This document shows positions 1 through 7,688 of a DNA stretch of 8,486 nt, in pieces (positions within the stretch are counted from its first letter, which is position 1; each line of letters starts with the position of its first letter). This DNA comes from a virus (lineage: Duplodnaviria; Heunggongvirae; Uroviricota; Caudoviricetes). The stretch is taken from IMG/VR virus record IMGVR_UViG_2634166492_000010; one strand, given 5' to 3'. The position numbers were made by a program, and so were the translations under genes. A model generated the notes under the pieces. The model ran no database searches and had not been told where the DNA came from. It saw nothing but the letters and a program-made list of their open reading frames with translations.

Positions 1-1
1 G

Positions 2-286
2 ATTACCGCGCCGGGTTACTGGTTTTACCGCAATGATGAATTTGTCTTTGACTACAGACTCAAAGCGGAAGATGAGCGTGATGCCCTTCTGGCTCAGGTC
101 AGTGCCCGGACAGGGGAATGGGAAGAAGACCTGCTGCTGGGGTTAATCAGCGACGAAGATAAAGAAAAGCTGAAAGCCTGTCGTATTTACGCGAAATCGC
201 TGCAGGCGATGGATTTCAGCACCATCACTGATAAATCCTCATACAACGCCATTGAATGGCCTGCCTCTCCGGAAGGTTCTTCCTGA
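2..286 (+). CDS. Phage tail fiber assembly protein (Tfa / P2 gpG / Mu U-like), C-terminal fragment; 5' end lies outside the window
   Basis: Frame 2 is open from the window edge to TGA at 284-286 and is not in the ORF track because it has no start codon in the window. Translation ends ...DEDKEKLKACRIYAKSLQAMDFSTITDKSSYNAIEWPASPEGSS, matching the conserved C-terminal pattern of Caudovirales tail fiber assembly proteins (acidic stretch, then a hydrophobic motif ending in EWPxxP). It lies immediately upstream of a tail fiber gene. Confidence 0.55.
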   Translation: MTAPGYWFYRNDEFVFDYRLKAEDERDALLAQVSARTGEWEEDLLLGLISDEDKEKLKACRIYAKSLQAMDFSTITDKSSYNAIEWPASPEGSS

Positions 287-309: not shown

Positions 310-1449
310 ATGTCTGTAGTGATATCAGGTGCGCTGACTGATGGCGCAGGTATCCCCATGTCCGGATACCATATTATTCTGAAATCCCGGGTAAACACCC
401 CGGAAGTGGTGATGAACACTGTTGCTGATGTGATGACAGGAAACGATGGTGAATACTGTTTCCATGCGCGGACTGGAAAATATGGTGTGTATCTGAAACA
501 GGACTGGCGCAACGAGTACAACGTTGGCGACATTGCTGTATATGAGGACTCAAAGCCCGGCACGCTGAATGACTTTCTGATTGCTCCTGATGAGGGCGAC
601 CTGAAACCGGATGTCGTCAAACGCTTTGAGGAAATGGTGGCGCAGGCGCAGCAGAGCGCCGGGGCCGCAGCCGGAAACGCACAGCAGACGGCGCAGGATG
701 TGGCGGCAGCCGCAGGTTATGCCCGCGCAGCAGAGCAGGCCAAAAATGACATTGATGCTGCGCTGACCGGCACCCTGAAAACGGCTAACCATCTGTCTGA
801 AATCGCAGCAGCAGGCGAAAAGGCACAACAGAAGTCCCGGGATAATCTGGGGCTGAAAAGTGCGGCCACGATGGAAGCACAGAGCGACATTTACGACCGG
901 ACAAAAGGCCGTCTGGCGATACCCGGCGCATTCGGCTTTGGGTGTGCTTTTCTGCCTGAAGATGTTATCCGTTTTGACACTAAGAGTGATTTCCTGGCCT
1001 GGGTAAGGAATGCGCTGCCAGGTGAATATTCCGTTGCTGGCCCTTACGGCATCATCATACCCGACACACGGTTTGAAGGGGTGCTCAGCATCCGGTGGAC
1101 TGATGCACGCCCTGAGACAACAGAACCGCGGTACAGAGCCAAATCCCTTACTTTTTACGGCATTAACGGCCCCATTTATCATACCCGCTACTGCTACTGG
1201 CCCATATCCAGACTGACTGACTGGGTGAAAATAAATATAACCACAGAAGATATTATTTACAGAATCGTGGCGAGCTCTGTCCGCAACAGATGGGGAGACC
1301 CTGACATTGGCGGGCTGATTATTGCTGCGTACCAGGGAGAAGCTGACGGTGATAAAGTCATCAGACTTGTCAGGGGCAGTCATACAGAGGCTCACGACTG
1401 GGACCGGTGGGGATTTCAGTGCCCAGTACTCCCACCGGAACGTATATAG
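310..1449 (+). CDS. Side tail fiber protein (379 aa): lambda Stf-like N-terminal anchoring domain, Ala/Gln-rich shaft, unrecognised C-terminal distal domain
   Basis: ATG at 310 with a weak SD-like GAGAAA upstream. N-terminus MSVVISGALTDGAGIPMSG...VYEDSKPGTLNDFL closely parallels the lambda Stf N-terminus (MAVKISGVLKDGTGKPV...ITVYEDSQPGTLNDFL, recalled from memory). Residues about 110-190 are Ala/Gln-rich, typical of fiber shafts. The C-terminal 180 aa (Trp/Tyr/Cys-rich) did not resemble any fiber tip domain I recognise. Confidence 0.8.
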   Translation: MSVVISGALTDGAGIPMSGYHIILKSRVNTPEVVMNTVADVMTGNDGEYCFHARTGKYGVYLKQDWRNEYNVGDIAVYEDSKPGTLNDFLIAPDEGDLKPDVVKRFEEMVAQAQQSAGAAAGNAQQTAQDVAAAAGYARAAEQAKNDIDAALTGTLKTANHLSEIAAAGEKAQQKSRDNLGLKSAATMEAQSDIYDRTKGRLAIPGAFGFGCAFLPEDVIRFDTKSDFLAWVRNALPGEYSVAGPYGIIIPDTRFEGVLSIRWTDARPETTEPRYRAKSLTFYGINGPIYHTRYCYWPISRLTDWVKINITTEDIIYRIVASSVRNRWGDPDIGGLIIAAYQGEADGDKVIRLVRGSHTEAHDWDRWGFQCPVLPPERI

Positions 1450-1587
1450 CATCCCCACAATTTTTCATTACGGGATGTTCAGAGCATTCATTACCGGGGT
1501 CATATTGCGCCCTGTCCGGGGTGCCGGATGCACATGTCTCTGGCGCAATGCCCGGGCTTTTTATTCGCACATCGTGAGGAATGCACC

Positions 1588-2151
1588 GTGGAAATTAAAA
1601 AAATCATTAATCCCCGTTATACCGAAAGTGGCGCAGTAGACTGTGACGTTTTTTTTGACGACAGGGACCAGGCAGTCCCCTACACAGCCACCGCTGATGA
1701 TGTCGCACCGACGGGTCAGCAAATCTGGCAGGAACTGCAAAGTGGCAAATGGGGTGAGATAGCCCCATTCACTGTGACACCAGAAATGCTGGAAGCGGCC
1801 AGAGAGGCCAGACGTCAGGAAATTGAAGCATGGCGCGCAGAACAGGAGGCGAAGCCGTTCACGTTTGAATGGAACGGTCGTATCTGGAATGCTGGTCCCG
1901 ACTCACTGGGCCGCCTGTCCCCGGTAGTCATGCTGGCAAAATCTGTCACAGCACAAACACATATGGCGTGGAGCGATGCGGATAATCAGCAGGTGAAACT
2001 GTCGATGCCGGAACTGGAAGAACTGGCGGCAGCAATGGTGCAGGCGCAGGTCGATCGCAACGATGAGATTTATCGCCGTCAGCGGGAGCTGAAGGAAGAG
2101 CTGAATAGTCTGAAGGATTTGAATTCGGTTAGGAATTTTATCGTGGAATAA
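1588..2151 (+). CDS. Tail fiber assembly chaperone, DUF4376-like; probable GTG start at 1588 (ORF track extends the frame to ATG at 1528)
   Basis: Open frame to TAA at 2149-2151. GAGGAA SD about 7 nt upstream of in-frame GTG at 1588; the N-terminus from the 1528 ATG (MHMSLAQCPGFLFAHREEC) looks non-native. Motifs EIEAWRAEQEAKPFTFEWNGRIWNAGPDSLGRLSPVVMLAKS and the C-terminal coiled-coil-like RQRELKEELNSLKD match DUF4376 proteins encoded downstream of enterobacterial prophage tail fiber genes (from memory). Confidence 0.6.
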   Translation: MEIKKIINPRYTESGAVDCDVFFDDRDQAVPYTATADDVAPTGQQIWQELQSGKWGEIAPFTVTPEMLEAAREARRQEIEAWRAEQEAKPFTFEWNGRIWNAGPDSLGRLSPVVMLAKSVTAQTHMAWSDADNQQVKLSMPELEELAAAMVQAQVDRNDEIYRRQRELKEELNSLKDLNSVRNFIVE

Positions 2152-2157
2152 CAGAAG

Positions 2158-2190
2158 CTGCGGCACGTCGTATGCAGGAACGTGCCGCGG
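2158..2190. other. GC-rich inverted repeat (10-bp stem, 13-nt loop) just after the chaperone gene; possible terminator-like hairpin
   Basis: ctgcggcacg (2158-2167) pairs with cgtgccgcgg (2181-2190), with one G-U pair. There is no clean T-tract on the + strand; the - strand has a moderately U-rich flank. Lies in the convergent intergenic region between the fiber module and sitD. Confidence 0.3.
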
Positions 2191-2351
2191 TTGGCTGGTA
2201 AACTTTCGATAGTGCGAGTATTGAATGATTTCTAGGCGTTATCGATTTTACGTATTTTTTGCATGATAGAATTCGTACCTCCTCCCAACGACCTTCCATG
2301 GCTTTCCGGACTTCTGTAGGCTGGCGGACGATGCTGTCCTCGGATGTTGTG

Positions 2352-3209
2352 CTAATTGGGTGATAACAGATCCTGTGTATGGGCGTTTCCCTTTGTGCGT
2401 GCGTTGATGCTGGTAACGGTAAACGTCATGATGAACACGACCGCGAATAAGACGACAATCGTCGGAGCTGGTGCGCTGTCGATAAAAAAGGACAGCCAGA
2501 CACCAGTCATTGACACTATTACCGATATGCCAGTCGCCAGTAGGAGCGCAATATGAAAGCGTTGTGTCAGGAGTACTGCAATGGCGCCAGGCGCAATGAG
2601 CAGAGAAATAGAGAGAATGATACCTACTGCTTTCAGCGTCGCCACAATGGTCAGGGAAACCATGCACAGCAGCCCATAATGCAGCCATCTCGTATGCAAA
2701 CCGCTTACCTGCGCCTGTTGATAATCAAAGCTGAACAGCAAAAAATCCCGCCATTTTACGCTAATAACAAGTGTAACCAGCCCGGCAATAATCACCGTCT
2801 GGATTATATCGCCGATGGTTATCCCGAGCATGTCGCCGAAAAGAATATGGTCAAGATGTACGTCTGGTTTAATTGCAATATACAAGATCAGACCTGCGGC
2901 AAACATGCCAGAAAAAACAATCCCCATAACTGTATCTTGCTTGATTCGGCTGTTGTCTTTCAGGTATCCCGTCGCCACCGCGCAGAATACTCCGGCGACG
3001 AATGCCCCTGTAGCCAGAGGTAACCCCAGAATCCAGGTAAGCACGATGCCAGGAAAAACCGCATGACTCATCGCGTCACCCATCAGTGCCCAACCTTTCA
3101 GGACCAGAAAGACCGACAGCAGCGCACAGGGTATGGAAACTACCAGTGAAATCAGCAGTGCGTGACTCATAAAGGTGAACTGCAGTGGCTCCAGTAATAA
3201 TGCCATCAT
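2352..3209 (-). CDS. sitD: Manganese/iron ABC transporter permease SitD
   Basis: 285-aa polytopic membrane protein ([24 protein letters not shown]...), the second of two paralogous permeases, typical of Mn/Zn/Fe cluster-9 ABC importers. Its start overlaps the sitC stop by 4 nt (ATGA). Operon order A-B-C-D matches sitABCD. Confidence 0.92.
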   Translation of the reverse strand: MMALLLEPLQFTFMSHALLISLVVSIPCALLSVFLVLKGWALMGDAMSHAVFPGIVLTWILGLPLATGAFVAGVFCAVATGYLKDNSRIKQDTVMGIVFSGMFAAGLILYIAIKPDVHLDHILFGDMLGITIGDIIQTVIIAGLVTLVISVKWRDFLLFSFDYQQAQVSGLHTRWLHYGLLCMVSLTIVATLKAVGIILSISLLIAPGAIAVLLTQRFHIALLLATGISVIVSMTGVWLSFFIDSAPAPTIVVLFAVVFIMTFTVTSINARTKGNAHTQDLLSPN

Positions 3210-4063
3210 GAGCGATCCTCCAGCGCTTTATGCGTACGCCGACGATTTGCCAAAAGTCCATGGGTGGGCGCAAATACAAATGCTAAAAGAAACAGCAGTG
3301 TCTGCGCCACCACGATGATTCCACCTGTCGCGCCGTCCAGAAAGTAACTGACCCACGCGCCGAGGAAACTGGTTACACTGCCAATAGTTACAGCAATTAT
3401 GAGCAGGCGGGGAAAACGATCGGTTAACAACCATGCTGTTGCACCGGGAGTCACCACCAGACAGATCACCAGAAAGGCACCAACCGTTTGCAGCGCCGCA
3501 ACGGTCGAAACCGACAGCAGGGTGAAGAAGAGGATTTTTAATCTGCCCGGATGTAATCCAATAGCACGGGCGTGATTCTCGTCGAAAAAGGTCACCATAA
3601 GATCTTTCCATTTGAAAAAAAGCACGATGATCGAGAGAATGCCAATGATAGTGAGTTGCAGGATATCCGCCGGATCGATTGCCAGAATATTGCCCAGGAC
3701 GATGGTCTGAATGTTCACGGATGTCGGGTTCAATGACACCATAAACAGCCCCAGGCCAAAAAAGGACGAGAAGATCAGGCCGATGATGGCATCTTCTTTT
3801 AAGCGGGTGCGTTGGTTAAGAAACAGCATGCTGCCCGCTGCCAGTCCGCCGGAAAAGAAGGCTCCCAGAGAAAACGGAAGCCCCAGCATATATGCCCCCG
3901 CAACACCCGGGACAATAGAGTGCGACAGCGCATCGCCAATCAGCGACCAGCCTTTTAGCATCAGATAGCATGACAGGAAAGCGCAGAGACCGCCGACCAT
4001 TGCCGAGACCCACATCGCATTGAGCATATATTCATAGCTGAAGGGTTCCAGTAGCACGTTCAT
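3206..4063 (-). CDS. sitC: Manganese/iron ABC transporter permease SitC
   Basis: 285-aa hydrophobic membrane protein ([25 protein letters not shown]...), paralogous to the downstream permease. Its start overlaps the sitB stop by 4 nt. Confidence 0.92.
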
Positions 4064-4887
4064 CTTGCTTCCCTCTGCACCGCTGACGGTCGATGTGCCA
4101 CAAAAGGGCGTTCATCGTCAGTAATAATGCTTTCTTCCGAGCCGTTAAGTGTGACATGGCGCAGTACGCCGCTAAAAGCCAGCTCCAGGTTCTCGGCTGT
4201 AAAAGTGGTGTCTGTCGGCCCGCTTGCCAGGACTGTGCCTTTGACCATGACCGTATAATCGCAAAATGTCGTGACTGAGCCGAGATTGTGCGTTGAGACA
4301 AGCATCGTTTTGCCTTCCGCGCGTAACTCCCTCAACAGGCTGATGATTTTCGCTTCGGTTTTCACATCAACGCCGGTAAAAGGTTCATCCAGCAGGATCA
4401 CATTACCCTGCTGTGCAATCGCTCTCGCCAGAAAGACGCGTTTCTTTTGTCCACCGGAAAGCTCGCCGATTTGACGATGGCGAAAATCCACCATATCGAC
4501 ACGTTCCAGCGCATCGGTGACAATCTGACGATCCCTCTTTTTGGCTATACGCAACATACCCATATGCCCATAGCGGCCCATCATCACCACATCTTCCACC
4601 AGTACAGGAAATGACCAGTCAACCTCTTCTGACTGAGGAACGTAGGCAACCAGGTTTTTCTGTAGCGCCTGTCGCGTGGGAATACCCAGAACAGATATCT
4701 TTCCGCTGGTCAGACGCACAAATCCCATAATCGCTTTAAACAACGTCGATTTTCCGGAACCGTTTACCCCAACCAGAGCGGCAATAGATCCACTTGGTAC
4801 TGTGAAGGATGCATCGCGCAGTGCTGTGTGCCCGTTACGCCAGGTGACAGTAACATCATTAACGACAATGCCTGCAGATTGCATCAT
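4060..4887 (-). CDS. sitB: Manganese/iron ABC transporter ATP-binding protein SitB
   Basis: Walker [13 protein letters not shown] signature LSGGQKKR, Walker B ILLDEP and an H-loop (STHN) are all present. Its ATG overlaps the sitA TAA (TAATG). Confidence 0.93.
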
Positions 4888-5801
4888 TATTTCTCCCTTT
4901 TCCCGGCTTTAATTCCCTGTACCAGCGTACTGGTAGTAACCTTAAGAAGGTCGATATACGTAGGTACCGGGCCGTTTTCTGTGCTCAGGGAATCGACATA
5001 GAGCACACCGCCGTAGTGTGCGCCGGTTTCACGCGCAACCTGACGCGCTGGTTTATCGGAAATCGTACTCTCGCTAAAGACTGCCGGGATATGATTTTTC
5101 TTAACTATATCAACAACCTTACGTACCTGCTGCGGTGTTCCTTGTTGATCGGCATTAATCGGCCACAGATAAAGCTCTTTTAGCCCCAAATCGCGTGCGA
5201 GATAAGAAAAAGCCCCTTCACTGGTGACCATCCATCGCTGATTCTCAGGGAGTTCCGTAATCTGCTTACGCAGGGGGGCAAGGGTTTGGGTAATCTTGGC
5301 TTTATAAGTATCGGCATTACGTTGGTAGGTTTGTGCATTTGCCGGATCGTATTTTATCAACGCATCACGAATATTATCGACGTAAATCAGAGCATTATCT
5401 GGCGATATCCATGCATGGGGATTAGGTTTGCCCTCATAGGGTCCTTCGGTGATCCCTACTGGCGTCACACCCGAAGAGACAATTACTTCTGGAACCCCAT
5501 TGAGATGCTGGTAAAAGCGTTGGAACCACAATTCCAGATTCATACCATTGGCGAGAATCAGTTGTGCCCCCTGCGCACGTTTAATATCGCCAGGGGTAGG
5601 CTGATACTCATGAATTTCTGCACCAGGCTTGGTTATGGATGAGACTTCTGCAGCATCTCCAGCCACGTTTTTGGCCATATCCGCGATGATGGTAAATGTT
5701 GTAATGACCTTGAATTTTTCAGTTGCACTTGCCTGAAATGCGATCGAGCAGGTGAGGGCGAGGCACCCCAAGAGCATGGTTACTTTTTTTATTGAGTGCA
5801 T
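4887..5801 (-). CDS. sitA: Periplasmic metal-binding protein SitA (Mn2+/Fe2+ substrate-binding component)
   Basis: 304 aa with an N-terminal signal peptide ([26 protein letters not shown]). Cluster-9 substrate-binding protein character ([28 protein letters not shown]). First gene of the operon, with metalloregulator boxes upstream. Confidence 0.93.
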
Positions 5802-5833
5802 AATTTAGTACCTATAGTGAGCAAAATTAGAAC

Positions 5834-5855
5834 AAACATAGCAACGGCTATGTTT
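5834..5855. promoter_or_regulatory. MntR-type operator: perfect inverted repeat AAACATAGC-AACG-GCTATGTTT upstream of sitA
   Basis: Directly read: 5834-5842 AAACATAGC, 4-bp spacer, 5847-5855 GCTATGTTT, a perfect 9-bp palindrome. Matches the MntR box known from enterobacterial mntH and sitA promoters (from memory). Lies 33-55 bp upstream of the sitA start codon. Confidence 0.75.
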
Positions 5856-5877
5856 TATAGCATAACCTATACAAAAT

Positions 5878-5896
5878 GAAAATAATTATCATTAAC
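5878..5896. promoter_or_regulatory. Fur-box-like site in the sitA promoter region
   Basis: GAAAATAATTATCATTAAC resembles the 19-bp Fur consensus GATAATGATAATCATTATC (about 15 of 19 by eye). Sits just upstream of the MntR box, where -35/-10 elements of a leftward promoter are expected; a TATAAA -10 candidate lies near 5854-5859 on the - strand. Confidence 0.55.
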
Positions 5897-6087
5897 AGCT
5901 TTGAGGCCTAAAACAGGGATTAGGTTGTTTCCTGCTGGCGACATGATATTGAGGAAAAAAGTAGAGCAGCTATTAGGCTTTGAAATGACTTTATGAGGAA
6001 AATTGTTGATGGCAAAAATGGGGCAAAAAAGAGTGGGTTATCGTAGCTTATTGTTGTCGCTGATAATGTTTAACATATTGAAAAATA

Positions 6088-6110
6088 GGTAATGCTGCCA
6101 ACTTACTGAT
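6088..6110. repeat. IS1 terminal inverted repeat, insA-proximal end
   Basis: ggtaatgctgccaacttactgat; matches the opposite end in reverse complement at 20 of 23 positions. Confidence 0.85.
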
Positions 6111-6142
6111 TTAGTGTATGATGGTGATTTTAAGGTGCTTGC

Positions 6143-6418
6143 GTGGCTTCCATTTCCATCAGATGTCCTTCCTGCTCCGCTACTGAAGGCGTGGTGCGTA
6201 ACGGCAAAAGCACTGCCGGACATCAGCGCTATCTCTGCTCTCATTGCCGTAAAACATGGCAACTACAGTTCACTTACACCGCCTCTCAGCCCGGTACGCA
6301 CCAGAAAATCATTGATATGGCCATGAATGGCGTCGGATGTCGCGCCAGTGCACGCATTATGGGCGTTGGCCTCAACACGGTTTTACGTCACTTAAAAAAC
6401 TCAGGCCGCAGTCGGTAA
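6143..6418 (+). CDS. insA: IS1 InsA (transposition inhibitor / N-terminal part of the InsAB' transposase)
   Basis: 91 aa [43 protein letters not shown]... with zinc-finger Cys pairs and a helix-turn-helix region, near-identical to K-12 InsA. GTG start at 6143. Confidence 0.93.
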
Positions 6419-6840
6419 CCTCGCGCATACAACCGGGCAGTGATGTGATTGTCTGCGCTGAAATGGACGAACATTGGGGCTACGTCGGTGCTAAATCACG
6501 TCAGCGCTGGCTGTTTTACGCGTATGACAGGATACGGAGGACGGTTGTGGCGCACGTCTTCGGTGAACGCACTCTGGCCACACTGGAGCGTCTTCTGAGC
6601 CTGCTGTCGGCCTTTGAGGTCGTGGTATGGATGACGGATGGCTGGCCGCTGTATGAATCACGCCTGAAGGGAAAGCTGCACGTTATCAGCAAGCGTTACA
6701 CTCAGCGCATTGAGCGACATAATCTGAATCTGAGACAACATCTGGCAAGGCTGGGACGGAAGTCACTGTCGTTCTCAAAATCGGTGGAGCTGCATGACAA
6801 GGTCATCGGGCATTATCTGAACATAAAACACTATCAGTAA
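6337..6840 (+). CDS. insB: IS1 InsB frame (expressed as the InsAB' transposase by -1 frameshift at the A6C motif)
   Basis: 167-aa frame ...[28 protein letters not shown]...[42 protein letters not shown]..., near-identical to K-12 InsB. The A6C slippery site lies at 6394-6400. Confidence 0.9.
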
Positions 6841-7683
6841 GTTGGAGTCATTACCTGCACGCTTTTCTTTTAGCCATGTCGGTGTACCGTCGTTGGCAAA
6901 TAATTCACTGTTATCCCGTGAGGTATCGATGCCGAGGTGTTCACCTCCCAGGTTAAGAAACTCGATATGAGGAAGAAAGTTTTTAAATGTTGGGTTTGAA
7001 AATACCTGTCCATCAATACGGGTGGAGCGATCTTTTAGTATTCTGGCGGTGCGCCACACCTGACCGGTTTCTATGTTCATTTGCTTCTCCATCTGGATCA
7101 GGATGGAGGGTTCATAACCGGTTTCTGTTTCTGCTTTCATTTTTATACCGGTTTTTGCCAACTGGCGTTTGCCATCATCACCTTCGAAAAAGTCATACTC
7201 ATATCCTGCACGCCCGCACATAATAATGTGCGCCTGACTGTTAACAAATCGATCGGTAAAGCGTCGCCACTCCTGTTTGAGCCACGCCCAGTCTGAAAAT
7301 TCCAGTCCTCGTTTACGGTTTCGGCGTCTGGCATACTCGTCGCATAATCCGGTCCAGAAGTGACTGATGGAGTCGATGATCATTACGGAACCGCTGCTTT
7401 CCGCTTCATTAATGGCTTCAAGCAGATCAACAAACGAGCGGGTTTTTGCCGTAAATAATTCGATATTTTCCGCATCAAAGCGGGGTTTAACCCAGTCAGA
7501 GCCTGTTTCTGTGTCCAGAAACATTACCGGGCGGTTACCAGCTTCAATTCCCCGTTGCCGCATAAGCATTACCAGACCAATAGCCAGTTCGCTTGCTGTG
7601 TAGGTTTTGCCGTCGCCAGCAAACCCCATAATTCCTGCTTTTAGATAGGCCTGTGTGTTTATTGCTCGTTGAAAAAGCGCCAT
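6775..7683 (-). CDS. Phage-associated P-loop NTPase (RecA-like; AAA_24/Sak4-like is the best guess); native 276 codons (6856..7683) fused to 26 IS1-derived codons, so 3'-truncated by IS1
   Basis: Walker A GFAGDGKT at residues 19-26, followed by FLDTETG; Walker B-like MIIDSISHF. The C-terminal 26 aa ([26 protein letters not shown]) are translated from the IS1 terminus, so the native 3' end is missing. ATG at 7683 is preceded by GGAGG lying inside the upstream gene's end (translational coupling). Family assignment is from motif pattern only. Confidence 0.6.
6833..6855. repeat. IS1 terminal inverted repeat, insB-proximal end
   Basis: atcagtaagttggagtcattacc, the reverse complement of the canonical IS1 end (ggtaatgactccaacttactgat). 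Confidence 0.85.
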
Positions 7684-7688
7684 AGATT

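Follow-up and report, generated by a model that had tools for sequence, protein, structure and literature searches.

IS1-borne junctions of the sit operon and a prophage ATPase gene in a Shigella flexneri draft contig

Gene content of the contig

The analysed stretch (8,486 bp, hereafter the window) corresponded base for base, in reverse complement, to the whole Shigella flexneri draft contig AMWM01000054.1 (GCA_000826695.1). Its features are listed in Table 1. The phage tail genes occupied the first part of the window, where the Caudo_TAP fragment was colinear with the sit prophages of E. coli and S. flexneri. The tail-fibre product was shortened because a run of five G reads as four at position 1373, and according to an exact-protein look-up this 379-aa form was confined to the present contig. 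Closed genomes of the 3a/3b type carried the end of an IS66-family element at 2036/2037, from which the window was free.

Table 1. Features of the window, with positions, strand and the basis of each assignment.
Feature	Position	Strand	Basis and remarks
Caudo_TAP (phage tail-fibre assembly) gene, 3' part	1..286	+	gene call and Pfam; gene cut by the contig end
Tail-fibre gene (phage_tail_N)	310..1449	+	379 aa here, 422 aa elsewhere
DUF4376 tail-fibre-associated gene	1528..2151	+	gene call
sitDCBA iron/manganese ABC transporter operon, intact	2352..5801	-	ORFs; SitA of the ZnuA family; sitA-D annotated in homologous loci
sit upstream region and IS1 left flank, 286 bp	5802..6087	-	sequence and alignment
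Putative MntR-type palindrome	5834-5855		between sitA and IS1; by eye against consensus
Fur-box-like site	5878-5896		between sitA and IS1; by eye against consensus
Nine bases outside IRL, TGAAAAATA	6079..6087		junction common, base for base, to mppA-IS1-sitA loci of closed 3a/3b genomes
IS1, intact, 768 bp	6088..6855	+	IRL 6088-6110, insA 6143-6418, frameshift motif 6392-6400, insB' frame 6337-6840, IRR 6833-6855
Nine bases outside IRR, TGCACGCTT	6856..6864		junction common, base for base, to ybhA-int'-IS1-ATPase loci of closed 3a/3b genomes
Prophage AAA_24 ATPase gene, 5' 828 nt (codons 1-276 of 365)	6856..7683	-	family match; identity to the full-length gene
Gam (host-nuclease inhibitor) gene	7689..7983	-	called as ORF 7689-8009, with a GTG start inside IS600
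IS600, first 503 bp	7984..8486	+	IRL TGAGGTAGCC..., orfA 8048-8350, HTH_Tnp_1 match; reaches the contig end

The sit operon and its putative MntR- and Fur-type control sites, which were assigned against what we take to be the consensus sequences, were untouched; since these sites lie between sitA and IS1, regulation of sit should be unaffected. Further upstream, at the GGGGCAAAA repeats (6020), the alignment placed the window in a 30-bp-deleted state. At the opposite end, the ATG start of Gam was destroyed by the end of an IS600 that was 99.6% identical, over the part present, to an annotated IS600 of E. coli VL40.

Members of the IS1 family are about 768 bp long, with imperfect terminal inverted repeats of about 23 bp starting with GGTAATG, and their insA gene (zinc ribbon and HTH) overlaps the insB' frame (DDE), to which it is joined by a -1 frameshift at an A6C motif. 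The element of the window agreed with the family in size, inverted repeats, insA/insB' genes and frameshift motif (TTAAAAAAC). Its IRL (GGTAATGCTGCCAACTTACTGAT) was matched by the IRR at 20 of 23 positions, insA matched Zn_ribbon_InsA and HTH_Tnp_IS1 (PF03811, PF12759), and the insB' frame matched DDE_Tnp_IS1 (PF03400). It was approximately 91% identical to E. coli IS1A and is a normal, probably active element.

Simple insertion of IS1 generates a direct target duplication of 8-9 bp. As the earlier note had observed, none accompanies this copy: comparison of the nine bases on each side (TGAAAAATA and TGCACGCTT) revealed no direct repeat. For seven further IS1 copies in the comparison loci the same flank comparison picked up clean 8-9-bp duplications, so that one at the window IS1 would have been detected as well. 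Duplications were missing from 7 of the 14 distinct IS1 sites in the comparison loci, and their absence was therefore common in the material examined; it is a property of the insertion event and not of the IS1 element.

The flanks themselves led to different places. The left flank ran on as AATAAAATAC... and the right flank was preceded by ...GCGATTTCTTT in every comparator. For example, in the enteroinvasive E. coli CFSAN029787 the left flank led to uspF-ompN-nifJ, while the right flank lay within a full-length ATPase gene of a prophage next to gyrA/yfaA, approximately 835 kb from the left flank. The junction pair occurred in none of the E. coli complete genomes. A simple insertion whose 8-9-bp duplication had been overlooked or had mutated away was thus rejected as extremely improbable, in agreement with the earlier note: the flanks share no repeat, they were contiguous in no comparator, and 80% or more of positions 5400-7700 was covered in no E. 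coli complete genome.

The two junctions in related genomes

The distribution of the left junction was followed through the sit alleles. The SitB allele of the window was present on at least 25 contigs (exact-protein look-up), and among the matches listed all 24 long contigs with this allele displayed the gene neighbourhood fnr-uspE-ynaI-mppA-IS1-sitABCD. The mppA-IS1-sitA arrangement was confirmed by sequence in the eight long loci displayed (L013-L020). Such loci possessed the same junction between TGAAAAATA and IRL as the window, with DNA from upstream of mppA (TATTCTCAG...) at the IRR; the mppA upstream sequence in the sit-linked partner read TATTCTCAGTTCC.... In addition, the closest relatives by SitA allele, 11 other contigs with the allele of the window, broke off at both IS boundaries, 2041 and 6084; GCA_026147505.1 and ERR6004928 are among the isolates with this allele. 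As the comparison of loci shows, the left junction, where the sit upstream region meets IRL 286 bp upstream of sitA, formed separately. An IS1 junction shared with ColV plasmids was considered and rejected, because the plasmid junction, although about equally far from sitA, differs in sequence.

The right junction fell inside the ATPase reading frame, as the earlier note had read it. The fused ORF (6775-7683, minus strand, 302 aa) was identical at 276 of 276 positions to residues 1-276 of a 365-aa AAA_24 ATPase, and its last 26 codons and stop came from inside IS1. This ORF represents a pseudogene remnant whose IS1-encoded tail is accidental. The ATPase part showed 100% identity to the gene in the ybhA prophage of E. 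coli FDAARGOS_944, as did the larger interval 6856-7983 to the same prophage, which is intact in that genome (L045; modABC-ybhA-int-xis-DUF1187-ATPase-Gam-RecE).

At least 24 long contigs carried the 302-aa fusion protein (exact-protein look-up), including those of S. flexneri 3a FDAARGOS_713 (CP054892), 3a CP066809 and 3b SFL1520 (CP032513). In the fusion loci displayed, the junction of IRR with TGCACGCTT and the IS1 itself were identical or nearly identical to those of the window. On the IRL side of the ATPase-linked IS1, closed 3a/3b genomes presented ...CTTCTTCGGCAAGAC and an integrase fragment, followed by ybhA and modCBA; int'-ybhA was the IRL partner in five of the displayed loci (L004-L007, L009) and a third partner was found in L008 (GCA_030646415.1). 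Among the matches listed, sit was found at the IRL of none of the 24 long fusion-protein contigs.

The 3a/3b loci were colinear with FDAARGOS_944 on both sides of their IS1, which stood in place of exactly 1,272 bp (L045 5868-7139). This interval contains the 5' portion of int, all of xis and DUF1187, and the final 270 nt of the ATPase gene. The ATPase gene was thus cut short by a local IS1-associated deletion in the lambdoid prophage next to ybhA, and the native partner of the junction between IRR and the ATPase gene is the integrase fragment, not sit. The earlier note had proposed aligning the two flanks separately to relatives in order to find a deleted interval. The deletion found extended toward the integrase at ybhA, away from sit, and did not lie between the flanks.

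In every closed genome examined that carried both junctions, each sat on its own IS1 copy, with 0.7-0.9 Mb between them. The copies were inverted and 863 kb apart in CP054892 (3,544,709-3,545,476, minus strand, and 4,407,705-4,408,472, plus strand), and direct repeats 707 kb apart in CP066809. The sit-linked and ATPase-linked copies of closed genomes differed from the window IS1 by 0-1 base, and the latter was the consensus sequence, carrying no copy-specific marker; SNPs inside IS1 were therefore uninformative for placing a crossover or a collapsed consensus. Both junctions are therefore real and fixed in the 3a/3b-type lineage, on two IS1 copies. As an in-silico crossover inside the IS1 of the two FDAARGOS_713 loci reproduced window positions 2037-7983 (5,947 bp) with one mismatch and one 19-bp gap, the window IS1 appears to be a hybrid of two copies, which would record an exchange between IS1 copies and not one local deletion.

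These results divide the interpretation offered by the earlier note, namely an adjacent deletion or a recombination between two IS1 copies with loss of the DNA between the sit promoter region and the ATPase gene. Recombination between two copies fits the data. A single deletion is not supported and neither is the postulated loss: in the closest relatives, as judged from SNPs and from both junctions, the flanks belong to separate loci at a distance of 0.7-0.9 Mb, and an IS1 is present at each. The sit-IS1-ATPase join was found on no other contig among the matches listed for exact SitA, SitB, DUF4376, tail-fibre, fusion-ORF and 106-aa Gam proteins.

Affinities of the contig and origin of the sit-ATPase linkage

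At the nucleotide level the contig grouped with the 3a/3b type, with which it had four derived sit SNPs in common and no difference over 1,128 bp of ATPase-Gam, compared with 7-11 differences (sit) and five differences (ATPase-Gam) from genomes of the 2457T type (AE014073, which we take to be 2457T). An allele at 6935 common to J17B and 2457T was missing from the window, and a private allele was present at 8437. Structurally, the contig agreed with 2457T in several respects: sit lay beside the ATPase gene, IS600 stood at the start of Gam, the repeats at 6020 were in the 30-bp-deleted state and position 2037 was free of an IS66-family element. The IS600 abutted the Gam start codon at the same base in the contig and in 2457T, whereas 3a/3b genomes kept approximately 1.3 kb of recE there.

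2457T and about 30 other closed genomes possessed sit, an integrase fragment, IS1, xis, IS629, a full-length ATPase gene, Gam and IS600, in the order and orientation of the window. J17B (CP100042, L027) displayed the same arrangement without the IS1. In both types sit and the full-length copy of the ATPase gene were approximately 3 kb apart in the window orientation. The flanks of the window were 2,931 bp apart in J17B, compared with 0.7-0.9 Mb in the closest relatives, and had the same orientation; the interval missing from the window corresponded to L027 14591-17521. The 2457T-type IS1, in the window orientation, replaced J17B 15156-15579 (424 bp), which is nested in this interval. In J17B and 2457T the ATPase module adjoined a Rac-type int-xis through IS629, with IS600 on the far side, and by our reading of this context it looks like a relocated piece and not like a module in its native surroundings.

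The 2,931-bp interval, the 424-bp interval nested in it and the common IS1 orientation made a deletion in place attractive at first. In such a scenario, which was the main idea of the earlier note, the ancestor would have been 2457T- or J17B-like (sit, 87 bp, int, xis, IS629, ATPase, Gam), and a resident same-orientation IS1 in int would have deleted outward at both ends by intramolecular replicative transposition, leaving IS1 between sit and the ATPase gene and 2,931 bp missing relative to J17B. The arrangement of the flanks in J17B, the nested replacement in 2457T-type genomes and the junction of IS600 with Gam common to the contig and 2457T are all in its favour. It was nevertheless downgraded to an unlikely explanation because the ATPase junction is native to the colinear ybhA prophage of the closest relatives: there the identical junction of IRR with the ATPase gene is a clean local deletion, with recE still on Gam, so that the scenario calls either for the same nucleotide to be hit in two independent events or for several compensating inversions. 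The SNPs, moreover, are of the 3a/3b type and not those of 2457T or J17B, the 6935 allele common to these two is missing, and the ATPase module of both seems to have been relocated.

As a draft contig running across a multicopy repeat, the window may owe the union of its junctions to assembly. Its structure is the footprint of an IS1-mediated rearrangement but possibly not the physical structure of the strain. Between the cell and the assembler the choice was left undecided, with a leaning toward the assembler over a real inversion; linkage of sit to the ATPase gene in silico was given slightly less than an even chance. S. flexneri genomes carry roughly a hundred IS1 copies. The junction of IRR with ATPase codon 276 was created by the IS1-associated deletion inside the ybhA prophage. 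In an in-silico join, the contig would have been carried through the 768-bp repeat, which is present in numerous near-identical copies in a Shigella genome. The contigs bearing sit and the ATPase gene would then have been merged, plausibly as neighbours when ordered against a 2a reference (2457T or 301). Both junction sequences would be real and their physical linkage would not, and in this strain no DNA would have been lost between sit and the ATPase gene.

Several observations are consistent with such a join. The two junctions were located on separate IS1 copies in long assemblies, and the SNPs of the contig were of the 3a/3b type while its structure was of the 2457T type. The contig also ended 503 bp inside IS600, a stop that fits extension limited by read or insert length, in which 768 bp would be bridged from both sides and 1.26 kb would not. 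This particular pair of IS1 flanks would have been united because sit and the ATPase gene become neighbours once contigs are arranged along a genome of serotype 2a; for an inversion in the cell, or for a mis-join at random, to hit the 2a-type pair would take a coincidence, and it is on this account that the in-silico join was preferred.

A pure read-mapping consensus on 2457T was rejected as the source of the contig, as IS629 was missing, the contig stopped mid-IS600 and a private allele was present at 8437. No single pipeline was named that reproduces every detail of the contig. A de novo assembler, for its part, cannot invent the junction of IS600 with Gam or an uninterrupted DUF4376-sitD interval. 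If the assembly was de novo, both are real and the strain therefore differs structurally from the closed 3a/3b genomes, so that a real difference at IS1 becomes less surprising. Mate pairs or PCR gap closure, if used, would likewise make the join real.

A real hybrid, considered possible but doubtful, would have arisen by homologous recombination between inverted sit-linked and ATPase-linked IS1 copies, inverting approximately 0.86 Mb with nothing lost. Both parental junctions were found in closed relatives, the copies are inverted in FDAARGOS_713 (CP054892), where a single crossover gives exactly the window, and the different IRL partner in L008 suggests that the ATPase-linked IS1 changes partners in nature. 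The strain also departs in structure from the closed 3a/3b genomes at sites where de novo assembly could not have produced the difference, and the part of PMC7545054 that summarises Fisher et al. (2009) describes the sit island (PAI sit) as unstable through homologous recombination. Were an inversion to account for the window, itself a tentative proposition, the reciprocal joint mppA-IS1-int'-ybhA would be expected elsewhere in the genome. The join is, however, known from one draft contig only, and of many possible IS1 partners the one recreating the 2a-type neighbourhood would have been hit by chance. Moreover, the copies are direct repeats 707 kb apart in CP066809, where a crossover would delete or excise the interval.

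A further and distinctly unlikely variant is that the contig faithfully represents a lineage of S. flexneri that has so far escaped sampling and carries 3a-type SNPs, and in which an IS1-IS1 inversion of approximately 0.86 Mb independently recreated the 2a-type sit-ATPase neighbourhood and IS600 inserted independently at the same Gam base as in 2457T. If true, recurrent, site-preferring IS rearrangements would be driving convergent genome architecture in Shigella.

Comparison with known IS1 behaviour and Shigella genome rearrangements

The truncated ATPase gene is a remnant in a decayed prophage and of small biological weight, and in Shigella it is common for IS1 copies to have no target duplication. 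The case illustrates that an IS lacking its duplication in a short draft contig is not readable as a deletion footprint before closed relatives have been consulted; here such relatives showed that the two junctions are independent and that one of them is a clean deletion of 1,272 bp at a different locus, and the union of the two may be assembler-made.

IS1 reportedly promotes adjacent deletions and inversions by intramolecular replicative transposition, as Reif and Saedler are said to have described in 1975 and Turlan and Chandler in 1995. The window resembles an adjacent deletion of this kind in that the IS was kept, no target duplication was present and one flank was swapped for a new target. 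The right junction fits such a deletion exactly, given the contiguous 1,272 bp missing from 3a/3b genomes relative to the intact ybhA prophage. Unlike in a single IS1 adjacent deletion, the flank pair of the window lies at different loci in the nearest relatives, and the mechanism is unreadable from the sequence.

The IS-rich, decayed prophage around sitABCD, with junctions common to lineages and partners that differ, is also reminiscent of IS-mediated recombination at the PAI sit of Shigella, for which the portion of PMC7545054 devoted to Fisher et al. (2009) reports RecA-type recombination and deletions in the sit island. In contrast to that island, support for the event considered here comes from one draft contig.

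The window likewise has the features of a chimeric contig or of reference-ordered gap closure. The repeat crossed at least equals in length the typical reads of the period, the contig terminates in other repeats, the join matches the adjacency of standard serotype 2a references, and among the matches listed no independent assembly has the join. It departs from a chimeric contig in its other unusual junctions, which are necessarily real in the case of a de novo assembly. Nothing in the window departs from the known behaviour of IS1 and of Shigella genomes.

IS600 at the start of Gam and the ATPase-Gam module

At window position 7983/7984, the Gam gene is directly abutted by the IRL of IS600 (TGAGGTAGCC...), which changes its start codon from ATG to CAG; gene callers chose instead a GTG within IS600 as the start, giving a product of 106 aa. 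2457T has the identical IS600|Gam junction, as do about 30 further closed genomes of S. flexneri. The junction was absent from J17B, and also from the 3a/3b-type genomes (closed genomes carrying both window junctions on two separate IS1 copies), which possessed the SNPs and IS1 junctions of the window.

Past IS600, the recE of 2457T shared only about 95-96% identity with the recE natively joined to Gam. The ATPase-Gam module of J17B and 2457T-type genomes looks like a piece of a ybhA-type prophage relocated by an IS-mediated rearrangement. In this region of these genomes (15926-17231 in the J17B locus, L027; 7226-9167 in the reverse complement of the 2457T locus, L040), an IS629 separates a Rac-type xis (DUF1233) from a site 17 bp past the ATPase stop codon.

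Genome arrangement in the 3a/3b type and the tail-fibre end

The orientation of the sit-linked and ATPase-linked IS1 copies was compared between two closed 3a genomes, CP054892 (loci L004 and L013) and CP066809 (loci L006 and L015). In CP054892 the paired copies lay 863 kb from each other in inverted orientation; in CP066809 they were direct, with a spacing of 707 kb and unchanged flanks. The lineage is therefore polymorphic for one or more large inversions that have other endpoints.

At the tail-fibre end, window position 2036/2037 is the exact position at which an IS66-family element ends (GTAAGCGCCCCGAG...) in closed 3a/3b-type genomes, which lack the tail-fibre genes; the window sequence is continuous across this point, without the element. 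Short sit contigs with the SitA allele of the window stop at 2041. At 1373, a G4 run instead of G5, private to the contig of the window, cuts the tail-fibre protein short at 379 aa instead of 422; the change is a genuine frameshift or else a sequencing error in the homopolymer.

The upstream region of sitA and other IS1 copies

The GGGGCAAAA direct-repeat region at window position 6020 occurred in three length states, likely caused by slippage between short repeats: E. coli, J17B and others had the full-length region, the 3a/3b type lacked 11 bp of it, and the window and 2457T-type genomes lacked 30 bp. Two putative sites were both kept, as they lie between sitA and IS1.

Candidate sites in the window upstream of sitA
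Feature	Position	Location	Basis
Putative MntR-box-type palindrome, AAACATAGC-N4-GCTATGTTT	5834-5855	upstream of sitA	by eye, against a consensus
Putative Fur-box-like site, GAAAATAATTATCATTAAC	5878-5896	upstream of sitA	by eye, against a consensus

ColV-type plasmids also carry an IS1 near sitA, located in pAPEC2908 (L043, 3700-4461) about 297 bp upstream of the gene and in the same orientation as that of the window. It lacks a duplication, and its flanking sequence is unlike that of the window, so it constitutes an independent junction beside sit. In CP050862 (L028, 14759-15526), the sitA-uspF spacer holds an IS1 located 167 bp past the insertion point of the window and flanked by a clean duplication of 9 bp (TAAGAAATC). 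IS1 has entered this A+T-rich spacer on more than one occasion.
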